Below are positions 8,236-64,000 of a DNA stretch of 64,000 nt, one piece after another. Numbering within the stretch: position 1 is the first letter of the stretch; every line of letters begins with the position of its first letter. The stretch covers positions 90,210,001 to 90,274,000 of the forward strand of contig OZ024743.1 of assembly GCA_964016885.1 (NCBI GenBank), in the 5' to 3' direction. The notes under the pieces were generated by a model. The model was not told where the DNA came from. It worked only from the letters and a program-made list of their open reading frames with translations, and did not search any database. A program made the position numbers and the translations under genes. The DNA comes from Eledone cirrhosa. Lineage: Eukaryota.

Positions 8236-10118
8236 TCATCATCATCATCATCGTTTAACATCCATCTTCCACGCTAGCATGGGTTAGACGGGAGTTGTCC
8301 CAATTTGAGTCAAGGTTGGTCGGGTGACCGTGTCTCGCTCATATAGGACTATCTGGTAGGTTTTCTTCGGCTGGATGCCCTTCCTAACACCAACCACATT
8401 TACAGTGTGGAACTGGGAACTTTTTACCATGTTACTTACACGACCACATTACAGCGTGGACTGCGTGTAGTTTTTTTTTTTTTTTTTTTTTTGTTTGTCG
8501 TGACACCTACACGATCTCGATCTCAATCTCATTATCTCATTTATTTGGACTGGATGTTGTGGTACCAGCTTTACAGAGAGAGGATGGTGTTGGTGGGAGT
8601 GGGAGGATAGGGTAGGGGTAGTGGATTGGGGTGTATATTTGGTTAAGAGGTGCCTACTGACTGTAGATTTCGCTTTGTACATAGGCAAGGCGGGTCTTCT
8701 GTATTACTGCGTAGCGCCAAAGATCTCGGTCCAGTGACATTGTCTTGGAGAGGTGTAAGTGTGTAAGGTCGGAATTTATCAGATCGTCCCAGGTTTTTCT
8801 GGGTCTGCCTACTCCATAGCTACCATCAATTTTGATCGCCCTGCACTTTTTTATGCAGATGTCGTCTTTCATGCGCATCAAGTGACCATACCAACGTAGT
8901 CTTCTCTCAAGTAAACAGCATCTGATCCCTCTTATTCCTAATTTCTCACTTAGTTCATTTATGCTTTACCGCTCACATATATTACTATTACACATCCAAC
9001 GGAGCATGCATGCTTCATTCCTTTCCACTCTGCGCAGGGCCTCTGCACGCAATGCCCATGTCTCACTGCCATGTAGCATTGCTGTTCATATACAGGCATC
9101 ATACAATCTGCCTTTCATTTTCAGCGGTATAAGCTCTCTGAACTTTTTCCATCCTGTTCTGACTCTGGTTACTGTACTTTCAGAACACCCTCCAACACTG
9201 CTGATTTCGTCACCCAGGTAACGGAAAGTGTCTACTATTTCTATAGAACCATCTGGGCAATAGAAGGAGCTAGTATGCTGTGGACACTTGCTACTTATTG
9301 CACCTGAGCATTGGCCACATATAAAGTCTATGTTCTTAGATAGTTTACCTGTGATCCCACTACATCTTTTATGTACCCATACTTTGCATTTGGGACATAA
9401 AATGGAATTTCTGCCTACTCCTTTCCTATACACTGAGCATGGCCATTTCCCTGAGGGCACCTGTGCCCTATTTTCCTTTCTACAAACTAGAACTTTAGTC
9501 TTAGACAAGTTAACTTTAAGGCCTTTTGATTCTAGGCCATGTTTCCATGTTTGCAATTTCTTGTCTAGTTCAGCCATTGATTCAGCTATGAGCGTTAGAT
9601 CATCTGCATATAGGAGTTCCCATGGGCAGCCAGTCTTGAACTCCTCTGTTATAGCCTGAAGGGCAATAATAAATAGGAGGGGCCTTGATGAACGCCAACT
9701 TTTACACTAAATTCTTCACAATATTCATTGTTAATTCTAACCTTACTGACTGTTTCATTATACATGGCTTGTATAGCTCTCACAAGCCATTCATCTACAC
9801 CTAGTTTTCTAAGAGCCCACCAGATAATGGAGCAGGGGACTGTGTCAAAGGCTTTCTCCAGGTCTACAAACTAAAGTAGAGGGGTTTACTTTTAGCTAGG
9901 TACTTCTCTTGTAGTTGTCGTACAAGGAAAAGAGCGTCTGTGGTACTTTTACCTGACACAAACCCAAACTGCATTTCATCTAGATCAATTCGCTCTCTGA
10001 TTAGTTGCGCTATAACTCTTTCTGAGACTTTCATGACCTGGTCTACTAACTTAATGCCTCTATAATTTCCCCTATCAAGAGCATCCCCTTTACCCTTGTA
10101 GCAGTTAATGATGATGCA
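8236..10118 (-). mobile_element. RTE-clade LINE, 5'-truncated and degenerate
   Basis: YRGIKL, QFGF, DLEKAFD, ELLYADDL, KVNLSKTK, PHD-like CSV..CPKC..WVHKRC, FRYLG, GRPRKTW; 3'UTR ending in (GAT)n. Confidence 0.9.
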
Positions 10119-21020: not shown

Positions 21021-22696
21021 TTGCGATGATTAGGATTAAAAATAAATTAAGTATGTCATGATAAAATGTACCCAGTACACTTTGCAAGCAATTGACATTA
21101 GGAAGGACATCCAGTAATACAAAACATTGCCAAAATACGAAACATATTAGCAAGACATGACTCTCTGATCCATCTAGTCACTGACTATGATAATCTGTCA
21201 AACCCATGCTAGCATGGAGAGCAGACATAAAATGATGATGCTTATCTCTCTCTCTATATATATATATATGTTAGATGCATAACATTAGTATGCATGAAAG
21301 TGAAGGCATGTGGTTTAGGGATTAGTATGCTCAGCTTACAATCATATAAGTCATGTGTTCAATTCCCAGATCAGGTGGCATGTTGTGTCCTTGATCTAGA
21401 TACTTTATCTCATGCTGCTCCAGTCCACTCAGTTAGCAAAAATTAATTGTACCTGTAATTCAAGTGACCAGCCTTGTCACACATTATGCCACACTGAATC
21501 TCCCTGAGAACTATATCAAAGAAGCATAAGTCTCTGGAATACTCAACCACATTCTTTCTTGGAAATAACAGTGCTCTAACAACAGCAAGCATGATTGACA
21601 AAGCATAAATAAACTGAGAGAAAAAGTGAATATAAGAGGAATTGGATGTAGTGCACCAGAGAGAGATGAGTGTGCGTGAGTGTGTGTGTACATAATGTAA
21701 AAACCTTTTATTTGTGTTGGTATTTAGGGAGCAGCTGGGTTTAACTAAATCTTCAGGGTTTTTTTCATAATAGATGTTGAAAGGAGGGTGTAAGGTTTGT
21801 TTGTTTGCTTCTCCATTGGGCTTGTTTTTGCTGTGTATATATACATCAAGAGACAGAGTACAGCAGCACTTTCAGTAAACAAGCATATTTATCCCTAGTA
21901 TAAGTACATATTTTGTTAAAGGTAACATAAGATACAAGCCACTTAACTTCTGCTAGAGTTGTAGGGGTGCAGTTCTGACATATGCAGGGCCGGATTTAAT
22001 GGAGGGCTATATATATATATATCAAGCCAGAATCAGTTCCCATCCCACCCTTGCAAGCAGGGAAAAGCGGACGTAAAATGATGATGATATAGTCCTATCA
22101 TCTCATTTCTACAGCTGAGTAAACTGGAGCAATGTGAAATAAAGTGTCTTGCTCAAGGAAACAACACATCACTCGGTCTGAGAATTGAACTCACAACCTT
22201 TCGATTGCAAACCCAGTGGTTAGAGTATTGGCCTTGCAATCGAAAGGTTGTGAGTTCAATTCTCAGACCGGGTGGTGTGTTGTTTCCTTGAGCAAGACAC
22301 TTTATTTCACATTGCTCCAGTTTACTCAGCTGTAGAAATGAGATGATAGGACTGGAGTCCCTATCATTCCACTGCAAAGTGGTCGTGGAGGTGCCACGGC
22401 AAAAAAAAAGCACCCAGCCCACACTGTAAAGTGGACGTGTAGGCGCCACGGGAAAAAAGCACCCAGCACTCACTGTAAATGAGGTTGGTTTTAGGAAGGG
22501 CATCCAGCTGTAGAAATCAAGCCAGAATCAGTTCCCGTCCCACCCTTGCAAGCAGGGAAAAGCGGACGTAAAATGATGATGATGATGATATGTAATAATT
22601 TACTTCTGCATTCACAGATTGATTTTTTTAGTTTCAGAAGATCTCGTTAAGGGTGAGAGCAGCGATTCTTTGCTTAAACTTCAATCTGTTATTTTA

Positions 22697-36324: not shown

Positions 36325-36449
36325 TCTATTAATAAAGGACACATCTAAAACATTACATTTCTTCATTCTAATTATACTCAGTCATCCTTATTTTGAAGAA
36401 GTGACGTTGAGTGCTTGAATTGAATTATATCCATGTCTACTGTATATAT

Positions 36450-37245
36450 AGCCAGATAGATTATATCCTTACTAGCAGATGGGACATAGTGTCTGTTGTA
36501 AACTCTAAATCTCTCCCCCGTGAAGAATGCACCTCCCAACATAGCCTAGTAGTTAGTGACCTCATAGTCAGGAATAGACGTACTCAACGACAGAGGAGGC
36601 CTACCTTGGGAAGAAGAATATGGAAGTTGAAGGACCCCATAGCCAGTGACAAATTTAAAAGCTTATTACTTGATGCCTTTGACAATAAGGAAGAGCAATT
36701 AGAGACGTGCGATATAGAGGAACAGTGGCAATTCTTGAAAGTGAACCTGCTGAAAGCAACAGATGAAATCTGTGACTGGAGCAGACCTATTGGCAGGAGG
36801 AGAGTAACTTGGTGGTGGAACAGTAAGGTAGAAGAGACAATCAAGGCCAAAAAGCAGGCTTGGAAAGTATGGCAGGATGGGGGAAGTAGAGAGCACTATC
36901 AGGTGGCCAGGAGAGAAGCTAGGAGACAAGTGTACCTTGCAAAAAGGGAAGCAGAGGAAAGAAAGTTCAAGCATGTTCTACAACGTGAGGACCAAAAACG
37001 TGAGGTGTTCAGGATTGCTAGACAATGTGTCAAGGAAAACTGTGATATTGTCGGGGAGAAGTGTGTCCATAATGATAACGGTGTACTTGCCCTCACTGAT
37101 GCTGATAAGAAGATAGCCTGGAAGTGTCACTACGAGAGACTATTAAATGAGGAGAATAAGTGGGAAAAAGATAGTCTGCCCCAAATCAATCCAATAGAAG
37201 GACCAGCGGTGCAAGTTAAAGGTAGTATAATAAGTAAGGCAATCA
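36450..37245 (+). mobile_element. RTE LINE fragment (end of APE endonuclease and linker)
   Basis: SQIDYIL...SQHSLVV..D; TWWWNSKVEETIKAKK; WKCHYERLLN. Confidence 0.85.
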
Positions 37246-37636
37246 GCCCGAATTAAGCCATACAGTGTTCGGCAACCATCGTCGCCCTTTTGTTCAACAC
37301 TGACAAAGGAACGATGAACTAGTTTCAAGCTTATTAGCTATCGTCAGCATTGTATACCTTCTTGTCAGATGATTGAACGTTTGAAAGTATATACTTTCCT
37401 TATGCATATTAACAGCTGAGCAACCGTACTAAGAGTGAGAAATGAAATTTCATTTCATTCTTTTCCATTTATCGTTTTCGGTACGCCCGGCCGACTAACT
37501 CACTCGATATGCAAATGAGGCTGCTCAGCCGTTAATATGCATAAGGAAAGTATATACTTTCAAACGTTCAATCATCTGACAGGAAGGTATACGATGCTGA
37601 CGATAGCTAATAAGCTTGAAACTAGTTCATCGTTCT
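37244..37636. mobile_element. Hammerhead-bearing pLTR-like element with inverted duplication; truncates an RTE fragment
   Basis: 37310-37413 is inverted at 37530-37635; same family as 57076-57375. Confidence 0.75.
37592..37632 (+). ncRNA. Minimal type I hammerhead ribozyme, same family as 57144; an inverted copy lies at 37312-37352
   Basis: CGAUG CUGACGA uagcuaauaagcuu GAA ACUAGU U CAUCG. Confidence 0.75.
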
Positions 37637-37644
37637 TTTCTCAG

Positions 37645-38090
37645 TGTAGGAGAAAAGAAAAGGCAACCAAATTCTTGAAAACTGTTTTCAGAGGACAAAA
37701 TCACAATTTAATCTAGAATATTGAACCCTATCAGTATATGAATCGATAGGTCCATGTGTTATTAAGAGTGAATCATGGTCTGACCTCATCTTCAGAATGT
37801 ATAAAACAAATTTCTCAAACATATTTCACTTAAGGAGGAAATTAAAGCAAGCGTGAAAAATGTACCAGTCCTTTTATGACTGCCGATGCATTTCGCACTA
37901 AAAAAATGATAGGACCTTTCTGTTTGCACCTTTTTCTGTTAAAGGGACTGGTACATGATTCGCTCTTAATAACACATGGACCTATCGATTCATATACTGA
38001 TAGGGTTCAATATAAAATTGTGATTTTGTCCTCTGAAACAATTAAATAAATAAATACTTTTTCAAGAATTTGGTTGTATTTTCTCCTACA
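37645..38090. repeat. Inverted repeat element (about 130-bp arms)
   Basis: 37645-37777 is the reverse complement of 37954-38090; the spacer holds hammerhead-like fragments on the minus strand (CTGAAGA; GAAATGCATC). Confidence 0.8.
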
Positions 38091-40888: not shown

Positions 40889-41763
40889 CGAGGTGTGTCA
40901 GTTCCACGACTGATGTCACAAAAGATTTATTTCAAACCCAAACTTCACACTAAGAGTTTTCTCCTTCAATCCCCCTGGAGTATGTAACTGTAATCTTAGC
41001 TCTCTGCAGCGATCAAACTTTTTTCTTCATAATTTTATATACATGTCCTCTGTTTCAGGTCGTCAAGCAATGAGCACAGAGCAACGAACAAACTTGAAGT
41101 TTCTGGTACGGTTGGGGAAAACTCCGTCAGAAGCACTGAGATTGCTGCAGCAAGTGTATGGAGATGAGACGATGTCATTTTCACATGTTTTTGAATGGTG
41201 CAAGATGACCCCAGGAGCGGAAGGCCCTCAACAACCAGGACTGAGGTCAACGTTGAGCGCGTCAGGCAGATGGTGCATAGTGATCGTCGGCTGACTGTTC
41301 GACTGATGGCAAATGAGCTGGGCATGAATCGGGACAGCGACTGGAATATTCTCACTGAAGATTTGGACATGCGGAAAGTCTGCGCGAAGATGGTGCCAAA
41401 ACTGTTGAATGATGACCAGAAGGGTCGACACATGCAAGTGTGCCAGGACATCTTCGAGCGTCTTGAAACCGAACCAGACTTGCTAGCGACAGTCATCACC
41501 AGTGATGAGTCATGGATCTTCGAGTACGACCCAGAGGGGACCCGTTTTGAAGATGTGGACGACATGAAAAAGGCTGTGACGACGGAATTGCAGAGGATCC
41601 CGGAAGAATCCTTCCAGGAGTGCATGCAAGCGTGGCAAAAAAGGATGGAAAAGTGCATTAGACTCCAGGGGGATTACTTTGAAGGAGAAAACTCTTAGTA
41701 TGAAGTTTGGGTTTGAAATAAATCTTTTGTGACATCAGTCCTGGAGCTTTTCTGACACACCTC

Positions 41764-53727: not shown

Positions 53728-53894
53728 AGGGTTAAAATACTGGAGCGTGTTGGAGTTAAACACCCTCTTCGTATTATAGAAATGACAGTAAAAGGTATAG
53801 CTCAATGTAGTTAAACAGAGCCGAAAAATTATAAAAATTATAAAAATTATAAAAAATAAACAAAGAAGCCTTCAATACATCAAAAGTCTTTATT

Positions 53895-53937
53895 AGCTGA
53901 CAGTGTTTCGTCCCATTAATAGGGACTCATCAGAGCA
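53895..53937 (-). ncRNA. Minimal type I hammerhead ribozyme
   Basis: Minus strand: gct CUGAUGA GUCCC uauuaau GGGAC GAA AC acu GU C agc; canonical core with a GUC cleavage triplet. Confidence 0.85.
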
Positions 53938-54609
53938 AGTAAAGAGACAAGAAGTATTAACGGCTAGAACAAGCCAAAACTCAGAAGAACAGGGAATTCA
54001 TATCTATGAAAACTTAGGAAAGACATCATGGAAATATATGCTAGAGCTAAAAGTGTGCATTTGCAAATATAGACTATAGGGCAAGAGAGCGAGTAATATG
54101 TCAAACCCACGTTGAAAGTACAATATAAGACAAATACATGAAACACAACATGGTAATACAATGTGAGAATTATAATATGATATAGAATACAATATAGAAT
54201 ACTATATAATGGATAATGAATACAATATAATGGATAATAAGAAATAAAAAGCTTAATATATATATATATATATACTGTAAATGAGGTTGGTGTTAGGAAG
54301 GGCATCCAGCTGTAGAAATCAAGCCAGAATCAGTTCCCGTCCCACCCTTGCAAGCAGGGAAAAGTGGACGTAAAATGAAATGATGATGATGATGATGATA
54401 TATATATCCATATATATACACATTTGCACAGACACATACTAACACTTATTTAAATATTTAAATATAAATATACTCGTTATAATATAATAATCATTATAAT
54501 AGAATAACCACCCTGACGGTGTGCATAAACAATACCAAAAACAATGGAATAATATACTGACATTAAAAAATATATAAAACTACATCATACGTATCATTTA
54601 AGGTCAACA

Positions 54610-54741: not shown

Positions 54742-56102
<1,361 letters not shown>

Positions 56103-56929: not shown

Positions 56930-57143
56930 TATGTATGTATGTATACGTACATACATATATGTATACAGACGTACAGTAGTATGTATATATATACATACAA
57001 GCACACATATATACATGCACGTATCAGTTTACCGAACATTTATTATAATGCTCGGTTTGTTTGTTTGTAAACAAACAGCCCGAATTACGCCGTACAGTAT
57101 TTAGGCAACCACGTCACCTTTTTGTTCAACACTGACACAGGAA

Positions 57144-57184
57144 CGATGTACTAGTTTCAAGCTTATTAGCTATCATCAGCATCG
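57144..57184 (-). ncRNA. Minimal type I hammerhead ribozyme
   Basis: CGAUG CUGAUGA u agcu aaua agcu u GAA ACUAGU A CAUCG; palindromic ACUAGU stem III; U-U pair at the base of stem II. Confidence 0.75.
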
Positions 57185-57388
57185 TATACCTTCCTGCCAG
57201 ATGGTTGAACGTCTGAAAGTATATACTTTCCTTATGCATATTAACGGATGAGCAGCCTAATTTGCATATCGAGTGAGTTCAGTCGGCCAGGCGCACCGAA
57301 AACGATAAATGGAATAGAATGAAACGAAATTTCATTTCTCACTAAGAGTGAGAAATGAAATTTCATTTCATTCTATACATATATATAT

Positions 57389-58198: not shown

Positions 58199-61100
58199 TA
58201 ATATAAGAACCGTAGAGCAAATATTTATTAAAATAACAGATTAAAGTTTAAGCAAAGAATCGCTGCTTTCACCCTTAACGGGATCTACTGAAACTAACAA
58301 AGTCAATCTGTAAACGCAGAACTGGATATTTCAAAAAACATTGCAACCGGAGGAAAACAGGAAGACGATACTTTGGTTCGTGGTAACGTTCGCTGGCAAA
58401 GAACGGGAAAAAACGAATAATACGTCATTAATAGGAGCGGTGAAAAACAATTACGCGCAAAGACAAAACCACGTTCATGGTATAAAAGAGGTCGTAGACT
58501 AATGTTCTCTTAGGTGGTGCATAGAGACGTTCTCTGGCAATGAACGAAAAACGAAGATAATAAGTCATATGTGGGGCGTGGAGAACAATAGCACGCAAAG
58601 ACAAAACCACGTAAATGGTATAGCAGAAATCGTAGACTAAAATTCTAACTAGGAGACCAAATGAATCTCCGCTACAGAGTTAAGAACAAAGTAAATAAAT
58701 ACAATACAGTAGTAATAGGAACAAATAAATACATACACGCAAACAGATACGTACATACACAAGCATACGCAAAACTTTACCATGGGTATACAAAACCATG
58801 CACATATAAATATGTGTGTGTGTATGCTTGTGTACAAATAAATAAATAATTATATAAACGTATATAAGTAAATAAATACGTATATAACAAGCGCACACGC
58901 ATACCTACATATAAATACACGAATGTTCGGAGACGTAAGTCAACTAAAACAAGAAGTACACATATACACACACCCACCATACGTACGAACCTGCACACTC
59001 ACGCGGGCGCAAAACTCCCGTATACACATAGCCAAACCCTAAATACCAGAATAGTGTAAAAATTATACGCTATAACAGTCAAATATACGTACGAGAAGGT
59101 ATACATACCTTCACAAAACATACGGGTAATATATACTTACCTATGCAAATAAGTAAAAGAATAAACAAAACATATACTTAGCTCCCACATCAAGACGTAA
59201 AATATCCACGTATAGATCGTGCTATCCGTTAGGGTATAACGTGGGGCTGTAATACAGGAAAGTTTTGTGCAATTTATGTTTACAAGCCGAAATTGCCTCA
59301 GATTTTTTGTTTAAGATGTGGTCTGTAGCGTAGAGTATTTCCAGGGCCTCAGCGGCGCAGAGGTCACATGGTCTTTTATTTCCGTTATACGATCTAGCCC
59401 TAGCTAGGATCTCCCAGTGTAACTTATATTGGGTGTGGTTGTCTTTTAGACTCCAGATATAAGCTGAAAGTGACGTCATATTCCTTCTTAGAGGGTAACG
59501 AAAAGAATGGGTATGGATGTAAAGACGCTGCTTGAAACTATTGGCGGTTAACCCTATGTAGGCCCTACGGGACGTGGGTGTTACAACCTTACATTTGTAG
59601 ACAATGTTACTAGAGAGGCATTTCAGGGATAGGGGGCAATCAGCCCGATTCCTACAATTACAGTTAGTACTAACTACAGGGTTGCACGTGTTCCTACGGC
59701 TAGGTAGTTTGGCTAAATTTGAAGCTGTGGTGTTATGTGCAAGGTTAGGAGTCGTAGAGTAAGAAATTTTAATAGTATTTCTATTAAAAATTTTACTATA
59801 TTTATGTGTAGGGGGAAAATGCTTCGTAATAAGGGAAATAAAGATCTTAGCTAATGGTGTGGCCACCTCCATATTATATGGTGGGTTAAACCAACAAATG
59901 CGACGGGATCTATTTCTTCTAGGTCTATTTTCGTACTCTGTATATGCTACCTTATCGACAAATCCACTTCGAGCAAGAGCTTCATTGTAATAAGTGGAAT
60001 GGTCGTTGAAAATGCGCTCGTTGGTGGAAAGACGGGAAAGCCTCAACGAAACGTTTCTTACCAGGTTCTTGGTTATGCTGGCAGGATGGTTGGAATGCTT
60101 ACTTATGTAATTAAGCGTATCATTCGGCTTTCTATACGGGTAATACAACCCATTCAATAAATTGAGGGTAACGTCGAGGTAATTAACGACCGAGAGATTG
60201 GCCTCAACCTGTATAGAGAGGTTGAAGCCTTTAAAGAAGGCTGTGAGTTCTTTTCTGAACCTGTCGCAAGCGCGAGGTCCGCACTTAGTCATGGTCAAAA
60301 GACCATCGTCACGGTACAAACCACCGCCCGCGTTGGGGAATTCGTCCTTGATAGAGAAAAGAAGGAAAAGGCCAATAAGATCAGTAACCTCCGCAGAGTC
60401 ACTGGCGCCCATACTCACGTCGAATGGGGTACTATTGGATTTTTTAATCCAAATAGAGTCGTCGAAATTAATCACCGACTTACGGGCATTGAGGATGACA
60501 TCAACTTCAAAATCCTTAACCACTGTGAGTGTTTTAGCGAAATTGATAGCTCTAAGAAGAAGTGGTAAAGTGATGGAGGAGTAGTAATTGTTGATGTCGA
60601 ATTGGATAAAACGGCAATGTTCCTTGTTACATATGCCGTTGAACCAATCAATCACCGCGAAAGAATTGTTCCACAGTGCGAGAGGGGCCAAACTTCTAAT
60701 TTCAGGTATAATTCTATCAAGAATCGTTTTACTAAGTCTACCTAAATCGGACTTCGTAGGGTTAATAAGCCGAATAGAGGGGTTGTTCGGAAAATTGGAT
60801 TTGTGATCCTTCAGGGTAAAGTGGGGAGAGATAGGGTCCAGAGGTTCGGTCCGGTCCAGGATGTTGAGATCAGATGTGATTTTAAACCCAGCATCGTTGA
60901 TTTCATTGATGACGCACCGATTAGTTTTACGGTAATACAGCATTATGTAGTAGTTGATGGTAAGTACTGCGCTCCACTTGATATAGGTTGCCAGTTTTGT
61001 CGGAATGGACGTGCACGGCGTTGGAATCCTTAATAGAACGAATTCTATTCTTCAGGTCTTGCTGGAAGGAATTGCTCCTATTCCGAATGAGTTCCAAGAC

Positions 61101-61480
61101 ATCATTTTCGAAGGGTAGCAATGCTGGGTTCCACAGAGGGTTATTATAGGTTTTTAATCCAAATTTATCCTGTTTGTTGTCTGCTTTTCGCGGATTATCG
61201 AAATAAAAGGCACGCCAACGCAACCTTTTAATGAACGCGTCTGTTTTCTGTATCAGGAGTTTTAGGTATGTTTTCCTGCTTGGTACGGGTATGTTCTTTG
61301 TAGAAATATTCAGATGTTGTTTCTGCATGATGAATATAAGTCAGTAGAGTGCTCAACCGAAGGAGCCAAATAGTAATAATAATAAAATTGAAGACTAAAA
61401 TCCAAAGAGGGCTCGATAAGGAAAATATATATCAAATATATAAGACCCGTAGAGCAAATATTTATTAAAATAACAGATTA
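58195..61480 (-). mobile_element. Penelope-like element, Naiad-type, near full length (copy A)
   Basis: RT + GIY-YIG ORF; the terminal sequence at about 58195-58243 recurs at about 61434-61480 as a direct pseudo-LTR; the 3' end abuts a (TA)n tract. Confidence 0.92.
59222..61328 (-). pseudogene. PLE polyprotein (RT + CxCx5C linker + GIY-YIG endonuclease), one frameshift near 60935
   Basis: STKNIP..KRLRWRAFYF N-terminus; FIQFDINNYY, MGASDSAE and LYRDDGL RT motifs; CNCRNRADCPL linker; NIVY..AYIG..FKQR endonuclease; CDLC. Confidence 0.92.
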
Positions 61481-63327
61481 NNNNNNNNNNNNNNNNNNNN
61501 NNNNNNNNNNNNNNNNNNNNNNNNNNNNNNNNNNNNNNNNNNNNNNNNNNNNNNNNNNNNNNNNNNNNNNNNNNNNNNNNNNNNNNNNNNNNNNNNNNNN
61601 NNNNNNNNNNNNNNNNNNNNNNNNNNNNNNNNNNNNNNNNNNNNNNNNNNNNNNNNNNNNNNNNNNNNNNNNNNNNNNNNCTCCGCTACGGAGTTAAGAA
61701 CAAAGTAAATAAATACAATACAGAAGTAATAGAAATAAATAAATACATACACGCAAACAAATACGTACATACACAAGCATACGCAAAAACTTACCATAGT
61801 TAAACAAAACCACGCACATATAAATATGTGTGTGTGTGTGTAAGCGTGTATACAAATAAATAAATAATTATATAAACGTATATAAATAAATAAATAAATA
61901 CGTATATAACAAGCGCACACACATACCTACATGTAAATACACGAATGTTCGGAGACGTAAGTCAACCAAAACATGAAGTACACATATACACACGCCCTAC
62001 ATACGTACGTACCTGCATACTCACACAGACGCAAAACTCACGTATACACATAGCCGAACCAGAATATATAAAAAAATTATACGCCATAACAATCAAATAT
62101 ACGTACAAGAAGGTATACGTACCTTCACAAAACATACGGATAATATATACTTACCTATGCAAATAAGTAAAGGTATAAACAAAACATATACTTAGCTCCC
62201 ACATCGAGACGTAAAATATCCACGTATAGATCGTACTATCCGTTAGGGTATAACGTGGGGCTGTAATACAGGAAAGTTTTGTGCAATTTATGTTTACAAG
62301 CCGAAATTGCCTCAGATTTTTTGTTTAAGATGTGGTCTGTGGCGTAGAGTATTTCCAGGGCCTCAGCGGCGCAGAGGTCACATGGTCTTTTATTTCCGTT
62401 ATACGATCTAGCCCTAGCTAGGATCTCCCAGTGTAACTTATATTGGGTGTGGTTGTCTTTTAGACTCCAGATATAAGCTGAAAGTGACGTCATATTCCTT
62501 CTTAGAGGGTAACGAAAAGAATGGGTATGCATGTAAAGACGCTGCTTGAATCTATTGGCGGTTAACCCTATGTGGGCCCTACGGGACGTGGGTGTTACAA
62601 CCTTACATTTGTAGACAATGTTACTAGAGAGGCATTTCCCGGATAGGGGGGCAATCAACCCGATTCCTACAATTACAGTTAGTACTAACTACAGGGTTGC
62701 ACGTGTTCCTACGGCTAGGTAGTTTAGCTAAATTTGAAGCTGTGATGTTATGTGCAAGGTTAGGAGTCGTAGAGTAAAAAATTGTAATAGTATTTCTATT
62801 AAAAATTGTACTATATTTATGTGTAGGGGGAAAATGCTTCGTAATAAGGGAAAGAAAGATCTTAGCTAATGGTGTGGCCACCTCCATATTATATGGTGGG
62901 TATACCAACAAATGCGACGGGATCTATTACTTCTAGGTCTATTTTCGTACTCTGTATATGCTACCTTATCGACAAATCCACTTCGAGCAAGAGCTTCATT
63001 GTAATAAGTGGAATGGTCGTTGAAAATACGCTCGTTGGTGGAAAGACGGGAAAGCCTCAACGAAACGTTTCTTACCAGGTTCTTGGTTATGCTGGCAGGA
63101 TGGTTGGAATGCTTACTTATGTAATTAAGCGTATCATTCGGCTTTCTATACGGGTAATACAACCCATTCAATAAGTTGAGGGTAACGTCGAGGTAATTAA
63201 CGACCGAGAGATTGGCCTCAACCTGTATAGAGAGGTTGAAGCCTTTAAAGAAGGCTGTGAGTTCTTTTCTGAACCTGTCGCAAGCACGAGGTCCGCACTT
63301 AGTCATGGTCAAAAGACCATCGTCACG
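61434..63327 (-). mobile_element. Second, 5'-truncated tandem copy of the same PLE (copy B), frameshifted
   Basis: 62236-63327 is nearly identical to 59222-60314; the 3'UTR 61681-62235 matches 58667-59221; homology ends at the YRDD codons. Confidence 0.92.
61481..61680. other. Assembly gap (200 N)
   Basis: Run of n. Confidence 1.
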
Positions 63328-63389
63328 GGGTTGTTATTTCACTGAGGAACTGGAATCATGATTCCAGTTCCTCAGTGAAATAACAACCC
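63328..63389. repeat. Perfect 62-bp palindrome at the PLE truncation point
   Basis: gggttgttatttcactgaggaactggaatca|tgattccagttcctcagtgaaataacaaccc. Confidence 0.95.
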
Positions 63390-63472
63390 AACCAGGAACT
63401 TGGCATATCAGAGTATTGACAATATTATACACCTCAACAACATATGTACTTGTCTATACCATACTAATTCAA

Positions 63473-63527
63473 ACTGCCTGAAGAGGTCACAGCCAAAGAT
63501 GGCTGTCACTGAAATATATATAGCAGT
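63473..63527 (+). ncRNA. Minimal type I hammerhead ribozyme; an inverted copy lies at about 63951-64000
   Basis: ACUGC CUGAAGA ggucacagcca aaga uggcugucacu GAA AUAUAUAU A GCAGU; 5-bp stem I and palindromic stem III. Confidence 0.85.
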
Positions 63528-63577
63528 AATAAACGAAGCTGAATTTTAATTATATATATAATATATATATAATATAT

Positions 63578-63699
<122 letters not shown>

Positions 63700-63717
63700 A
63701 TATATATATATATATAT

Positions 63718-63803
<86 letters not shown>

Positions 63804-64000
63804 TTTGAGTTTATGTTGGTTGTATACCAACACTTCAGTATGCAGGCTGGAGCACTCGACGAAGTGCGCAGGTTGGTTTGGTTACTCCGGAGTAGTGTAA
63901 AATAAAGTTAAATAAAAAGTCAAATGATTAAAATTCAGCTTCGTTTATTACTACTATATATATTTCAGTGACAGCCATCTTTGGCTGTGACCTCTTCAGG

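Follow-up and report, generated by a model that had tools for sequence, protein, structure and literature searches.

The 3' pseudo-LTR (pLTR) of a Penelope-like element (PLE) in Eledone cirrhosa contains a type I hammerhead fold whose core reads A instead of U at position 4. The fold occupies 58236..58311 on the minus strand of the window (the whole 64,000-nt stretch of DNA analysed here). We are highly confident that it is hammerhead-derived and that its A4 is both fixed and selected. Hammerheads are held to have an invariant U4, and the descriptors used to search for them require it. New here is a far diverged sister lineage, B, which retains A4 together with the core and the stems.

The hammerhead fold and its host element

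An earlier sequence-only reading had placed a type I hammerhead topology in the pseudo-LTR of a PLE. The letters it quoted are those found at 58311-58236 (minus strand), and a stem-by-stem parse bore the topology out. Stem I has nine distal base pairs, a 7-nt bulge and five proximal base pairs. The core strand CAGUAGA is followed by a 3-bp stem II flanked by U.U and then by GAA, and stem III has 5 bp with a 7-nt loop. Helices of 5+9, 3 and 5 bp surround the core and the ends lie in stem I, as in a type I three-helix fold. The triplet is CUU, with U17 at 58250, and the cleavage site predicted from hammerhead numbering falls directly after it (58249..58250, minus strand). G12, A13 and A14, the A15.1-U16.1 pair, H17 and the C3-G8 pair are all present. 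The core strand C3-A9 (58284..58290, minus strand, with C3 at 58290) departs from the canonical C3 U4 G5 A6 N7 G8 A9 at the family-fixed A4 (58289) and, in this copy, also at U6 (58287), a minority change. At 22614..22690 (plus strand) the older A subfamily has a solo copy, truncated at its 5' end, that reads CAGAAGA and ends in (TA)n, so that the two copies in the window do share U4A, as had been claimed. This second copy also bears A14G and a G.U in stem II.

A relaxed descriptor (at most two core mismatches, stems of 5+3+5 bp) found one site in the window versus two in 30 local shuffles. By itself, the folding energy of 58236..58311 is unremarkable (z -0.29). At -13.0 kcal/mol, the hammerhead fold lies 2-2.6 kcal/mol above the predicted minimum, and the pairing probability predicted for proximal stem I at 37 C is 0.02-0.35; a canonical hammerhead from the same genome is likewise not the predicted minimum. 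In an alignment of 20 family copies, 92.6% of cells were paired, compared with 23-52% when slid.

On its protein motifs, the element is assigned to the Hydra clade of PLEs. Its ORF (59222..61328, minus strand) is frameshifted in the window copy and encodes a reverse transcriptase (RT) with KNIP, RWRA (61220), DKTG (61001) and YRDDG (60316), a CxCX5C linker (CNCRNRADC, 59662), a C-terminal GIY-YIG endonuclease, CxxC (CDLC, 59368) and CxH (CKH, 59284). Elsewhere in the genome the ORF is open, at 708-710 aa, in 10 of 30 near-intact copies; a Pfam-A search with a 609-aa frame returned no family. Downstream of the fold, family sequence (the 3' tail) runs into a (TA)n target run (58200..58235, minus strand). 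Between fold and ORF lies the 3' UTR or pseudo-LTR body, with an internal duplication of ~140 nt (58312..59221, minus strand). The 5' leader (61329..61480, minus strand) comprises the 3' arm of an upstream hammerhead's distal stem I and the 5' UTR; the N run at 61481-61680 would cover the remainder of that hammerhead. An upstream 5'-truncated tandem copy, 95% identical, follows at 61681..63328 (minus strand; RT end, endonuclease and 3' UTR) and makes a partial-tandem arrangement with the ORF-bearing copy. In a contiguous tandem copy (L342), the predicted cut site lies 158 nt upstream of the ORF start and the cut-to-cut unit is 3,260 nt.

These features agree with the Hydra-clade PLEs of Craig et al. 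(2021, PMC8557442), for which a single ORF with C-terminal GIY-YIG, RW(K/R), DKT, a CxCX5C linker, CxxC and CxH, a (TA)n target and a type I hammerhead in the pLTR are described. The partial tandem and inverted pLTR copies and the tail also fit the clade. So does the overall build of the fold, which corresponds to that of the Hydra-clade hammerheads in their File S2; a U.U at the base of stem II, as here, occurs in 13 of its 26 Hydra rows. The canonical hammerhead expected in the pLTR is represented by the fold with an A4 core: all 26 listed rows, found with a CUGA descriptor, read CUGA, whereas this family reads CAGA. The family further departs from the listed rows in its G15.2-C16.2 pair, its CUU site and the 5 bp and 7-nt loop of its stem III, and it does not share the sequence of the Hydra-1_oBim hammerhead among them. 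The published unit is generally <3 kb, while here it is about 3.26 kb. The sequence-only reading had called the element a Naiad, an identity we reject. Naiads share the (TA)n preference and the pLTR structure but are described with an N-terminal GIY-YIG endonuclease, DKA and no canonical hammerhead (PMC8557442), none of which applies to this element with its C-terminal endonuclease and DKT.

A4 as the state of the family

A 25-letter pattern run against the species' own 3.0-Gb genome gave 17,189 matches in the form CAG(A/T)AGA and 63 in the form CTGANGA. Among matches with A7, a letter other than A stood at position 4 in 164 in total (61 U, 103 C or G), so that U4 is at background level and no commoner than C4 or G4. 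All 59 motifs in 30 near-intact elements carry A4. A4 is therefore the family state, and the U6 of the window copy is a minority, copy-level change, seen in none of the 100 CAG(A/U)AGA matches listed and in five of the 30 closest loci. The earlier proposal that U4A is a family-level variant and not decay from a canonical CUGA consensus has thus held up, the family consensus being A4; CAGUAGA as the family core has not. A separate U4 subfamily was considered and rejected: the flanks of the five U4 copies examined (of 63) come from both A subfamilies, and U4 and A4 occur together in one insertion. CUGAAG in L181, L202 and L329 lies at inversion junctions. Contigs from six runs, of unrecorded kind and in two runs numbering just 1-8, are not counted as support from independent species.

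The genome is very rich in hammerheads, with 66,779 matches (control 137) to the canonical-core pattern CTGAWGAT..TGAAAC, in which stem II is flanked by U.U. The A4 form of this pattern gave 1,514 matches (control 159), and the 100 of these listed are a mix of mutants, family A members and LINE YADD codons. Recurring CAGATGAT matches (L155-L168) are such LINE YADD codons.

It had also been suggested that standard searches would miss the motif. They do: a local Rfam scan gave no hammerhead match at E<=10 for an A4 copy, and in the Rfam scan of the window no hammerhead stood among the best 150 of 287 rows. A natural U4 copy was missed by Rfam too, so A4 is not the only reason for the motif being overlooked. 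We also built a model of our own, using 30 canonical motifs of the Hydra type. It scored natural U4 copies at 22-24 bits and A4 copies at 11-14 bits, and the window copy was not found at E<=10, nor was it among the 22 matches of this model.

Selection on the fold across two lineages

Lineage B was reached through one match of the A4-form pattern search. All 11 exact lineage-B matches carry A4. Because 11 core letters were fixed in the pattern that first found the lineage, part of the core conservation is an ascertainment effect; the pattern did not include stems or loops. Five loci picked by their ORF among 30 (L304, L305, L306, L307 and L319) also carry A4. Lineage B is the older, its copies differing from their own majority sequence by 8-9% at the motif and 12% in the ORF; for family A the corresponding divergence is ~0.7% in the young and 4% in the old subfamily.

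We compared the majority sequences of A and B. ORF identity is 90% at codon position 1 and 95% at position 2, and only 61 of 140 fourfold-degenerate sites (44%) are identical. In the hammerhead, by contrast, 13 of 13 core and junction letters and 43 of 44 stem letters are kept, the sole stem change retaining a G.U pair. Loop and bulge letters are kept at only 12 of 22 positions, and both loop II and the stem I bulge differ. Stems are thus more conserved than loops (Fisher p=2.7e-5) and than fourfold sites (p=6e-12). The C3-G8 pair, G5, A6, A9, G12, A13, A14, the A15.1-U16.1 pair and H17 are intact and conserved as much as the stems. This constancy of core and stems against changing loops indicates purifying selection on the A4 fold, not decay. 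The differing loops and the 8-9% decay of lineage-B copies argue against the B hammerhead being a recent recombinant from A.

Stem covariation, which the sequence-only reading had put forward as a check, was not significant within the family: among 20 copies, the score was reached by 63 of 500 shuffles. Changes on both sides of a stem (19 of 500 shuffles) stem from single decayed copies. Selection on the fold is therefore shown by constancy and not by compensatory change. AT-rich stretches directly outside the fold are also common to A and B, and conservation cannot tell catalysis from protein recognition.

To place the variant among relatives, we scanned 77 metagenome loci encoding related proteins with a descriptor permitting one core mismatch. 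Canonical CUGA hammerheads were found in 42 of these loci and no hammerhead motif in 33. No convincing A4 was seen among the 77, the one weak A4 match lying inside an ORF (L119). Hammerhead-shaped motifs with C4 occur at L083:2269, beside a canonical one and with a clean 6-bp stem I, and at L134:1323. The 15.2:16.2 pair is G-C in the A4 family and C-G in all 42 metagenome hammerheads, as it is in all 26 Hydra rows of File S2 (PMC8557442), a descriptor-limited set. The swap preserves pairing, and it co-occurs with A4 in both lineages and in none of the 42 canonical relatives. In a tree of 43 proteins, built only from relatives collected in this analysis, A and B form one starred group, with P0002 and P0031 as the nearest rows. 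An L217-type Hydra-like family of the same genome, on a long branch and of unsure placement, seems to have a similarly built U4 hammerhead. When P0002 served as query in a protein search for a nearer U4 outgroup, the top-scoring rows, 30 of 71 being inspected, behaved like family A members. The simplest reading is that A4 arose once from U4.

Possible cutting and its alternatives

At slightly better than even confidence, we read the A4 fold as a type I hammerhead kept under selection that would cut slowly after CUU, probably only with the element protein. Transcripts of tandem copies would carry the motif, and reverse transcription would start some 25 or 115 nt past the cut site and copy across it, in which case fast cutting would be unneeded and may be harmful. 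An attenuated ribozyme would then trim or circularise the RNA late. Slow cutting would be tolerated on this scheme, yet every other catalytic-core letter is kept.

Published PLE hammerheads offer a precedent for low activity. Those of Cervera and De la Pena (2014, PMC4209133) are likewise type I pLTR motifs with thousands of solo truncated copies, and low intrinsic activity is expected of them, as it may be here. In the metazoan examples helix III is minimal or palindromic and the dimer is the acting form, whereas helix III is full here; the one core variant in the text consulted is U3-A8, as against A4. The Poseidon PLE of Anolis (Frangieh et al. 2024, PMC11167929) belongs to a different clade and has a C3-G8 core. 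Cutting by its hammerhead requires the PLE protein, and the template is mostly uncut RNA. It has two RT start sites downstream of the hammerhead and an optional tail, and its template is read through the cut site, as would be the case here. Its hammerhead overlaps the ORF start, while ours lies 158 nt upstream.

In a pairwise mutagenesis of a type III hammerhead, single CUGA mutants all had low activity, and no double mutant in the CUGA motif was reported to rescue except a C3-G8 swap (PMC9901934). Natural core variants include another change at position 4, the U4C of a viroid, which cuts more slowly in vitro but still suffices for infectivity, and active natural hammerheads can also tolerate U10.1.U11.1 (Perreault et al. 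2011, PMC3088659). The variants in that paper are rare single RNAs and U4A is not named in the text consulted, whereas here A4 is fixed in two lineages and in >17,000 copies. The literature search, which covered text, turned up no hammerhead with U4A or CAGANGA; an earlier mention may exist. The low published activity of CUGA mutants, the non-significant covariation and the non-minimum fold all count against strong activity.

Element ends were examined around the predicted cut site. None of 70 distinct ORF-proximal copies (from 174 matches) starts within -5..+9 of the site, and 42 of them run through it. Of 982 matches selected for a junction near the site, 100 were read by eye; the junctions spread over -18..+6, with about seven at the predicted site, four of these being inversions at stem I microhomology. 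Such copy-start tests are uninformative on cutting because canonical families also carry sequence past their own cut site, and because no read ends were seen at the site in the anole study (PMC11167929). At the other end, a (TA) run was in reach for 132 of 188 motif copies, whose 3' ends cluster 20-34 nt (69 copies) and 110-124 nt (44 copies) past the cut site. A canonical-core family shows the same two downstream termini. The two preferred termini are ~90 nt apart in family A and ~70 nt in the canonical L217-type family, spacings that exceed the usually quoted 30-40 bp tail. Self-complementary parts of the hammerhead (the arms of stem I, loop III) contain many inversion junctions, which suggests template fold-back during copying.

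These clustered 3' ends would also suit a catalytically dead hammerhead kept as a structural handle, recognised by the RT/endonuclease or positioning an internal RT start. We regard this as rather unlikely, though the strongest of the alternatives. It is favoured by the low activity of CUGA mutants on the other scaffold (PMC9901934), by the finding that hammerhead cutting is not needed for in vitro insertion of the anole element (PMC11167929), by the spread of Naiads without canonical hammerheads (PMC8557442) and by the AT-rich stretches adjoining the fold that A and B have in common. The same two termini, however, occur in canonical-core families. A pure handle would also be expected to let some of the core drift as the loops did, but G8, G12, H17 and the rest of the core outside position 4 stayed the same while fourfold sites fell to 44%, and this constancy argues against it.

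A further alternative is a fully active variant, in which other features of the lineage would compensate for A4 and the monomer would cut at normal rates. Candidate features are the swapped G15.2-C16.2 pair, A7, the long stem III and a bulged, extended stem I contacting loop II. Most PLE hammerheads have a weaker stem III and distal stem I than the 5 bp and 9 bp seen here, and tertiary contacts have been suggested to offset core variants (PMC3088659). The pairing of A4 with the 15.2:16.2 swap in both lineages and in none of the canonical relatives points the same way, but with a single origin it is not independent evidence. Against it, A and B are unlike each other in loop II and in the bulge of stem I, the usual tertiary partners, and no double mutant rescued CUGA, albeit on a different scaffold (PMC9901934). 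We consider full activity doubtful. That U4A in a master copy killed the ribozyme and the family spread anyway as a neutral relic, its similarity reflecting recent amplification, is very improbable: the young subfamily is indeed only ~0.7% from its majority sequence and cutting is not required in vitro (PMC11167929), but the A-B comparison of stems with fourfold sites and loops largely refutes it.

With >17,000 copies, open ORFs, and A4 and a frozen core held while synonymous sites neared saturation, the family is a natural experiment on the open question of what PLE hammerheads are for. Should the A4 hammerhead cut, the accepted consensus would be too narrow; should it not, the fold would be selected for something besides cutting. 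We tentatively entertain an active natural hammerhead with a purine in place of U4, long held by a rewired core (A4, A7, G15.2-C16.2) or by the element protein. If that were true, CUGA-based searches would have missed whole families, perhaps including some "ribozyme-free" PLEs. The genome supplies its own controls in natural U4, C4 and G4 copies with identical flanks and in canonical sister families.

Other repeats of this genome also carry hammerhead-like motifs. Within the window, canonical-CUGA examples belonging to other repeat families lie at 53889-53943, 57118-57189 and 37300-37357 (minus strand) and at 37587-37658 and 63468-63532 (plus strand). Inverted 77-bp arms around a (TA)-rich run at 63477-64000 overlap a hammerhead-like motif. 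In L152 (G000:C1:5388000-5393500) and L323, 310-bp units repeated in tandem each contain a canonical minimal hammerhead and look retrozyme-like. Repeats with CAGA(A/T)GAT..TGAAA that are near (TA)n or multicopy and have no clear stem I (L171/L219, L172, L173, L169 and L170) could be further degenerate hammerheads. By eye, we take window positions 41195-41698 (plus strand) to be a mariner-type transposase fragment, and 9086-9706 (minus strand), 55295-55783 and 36411-37256 (both plus strand) to be LINE reverse transcriptase fragments.
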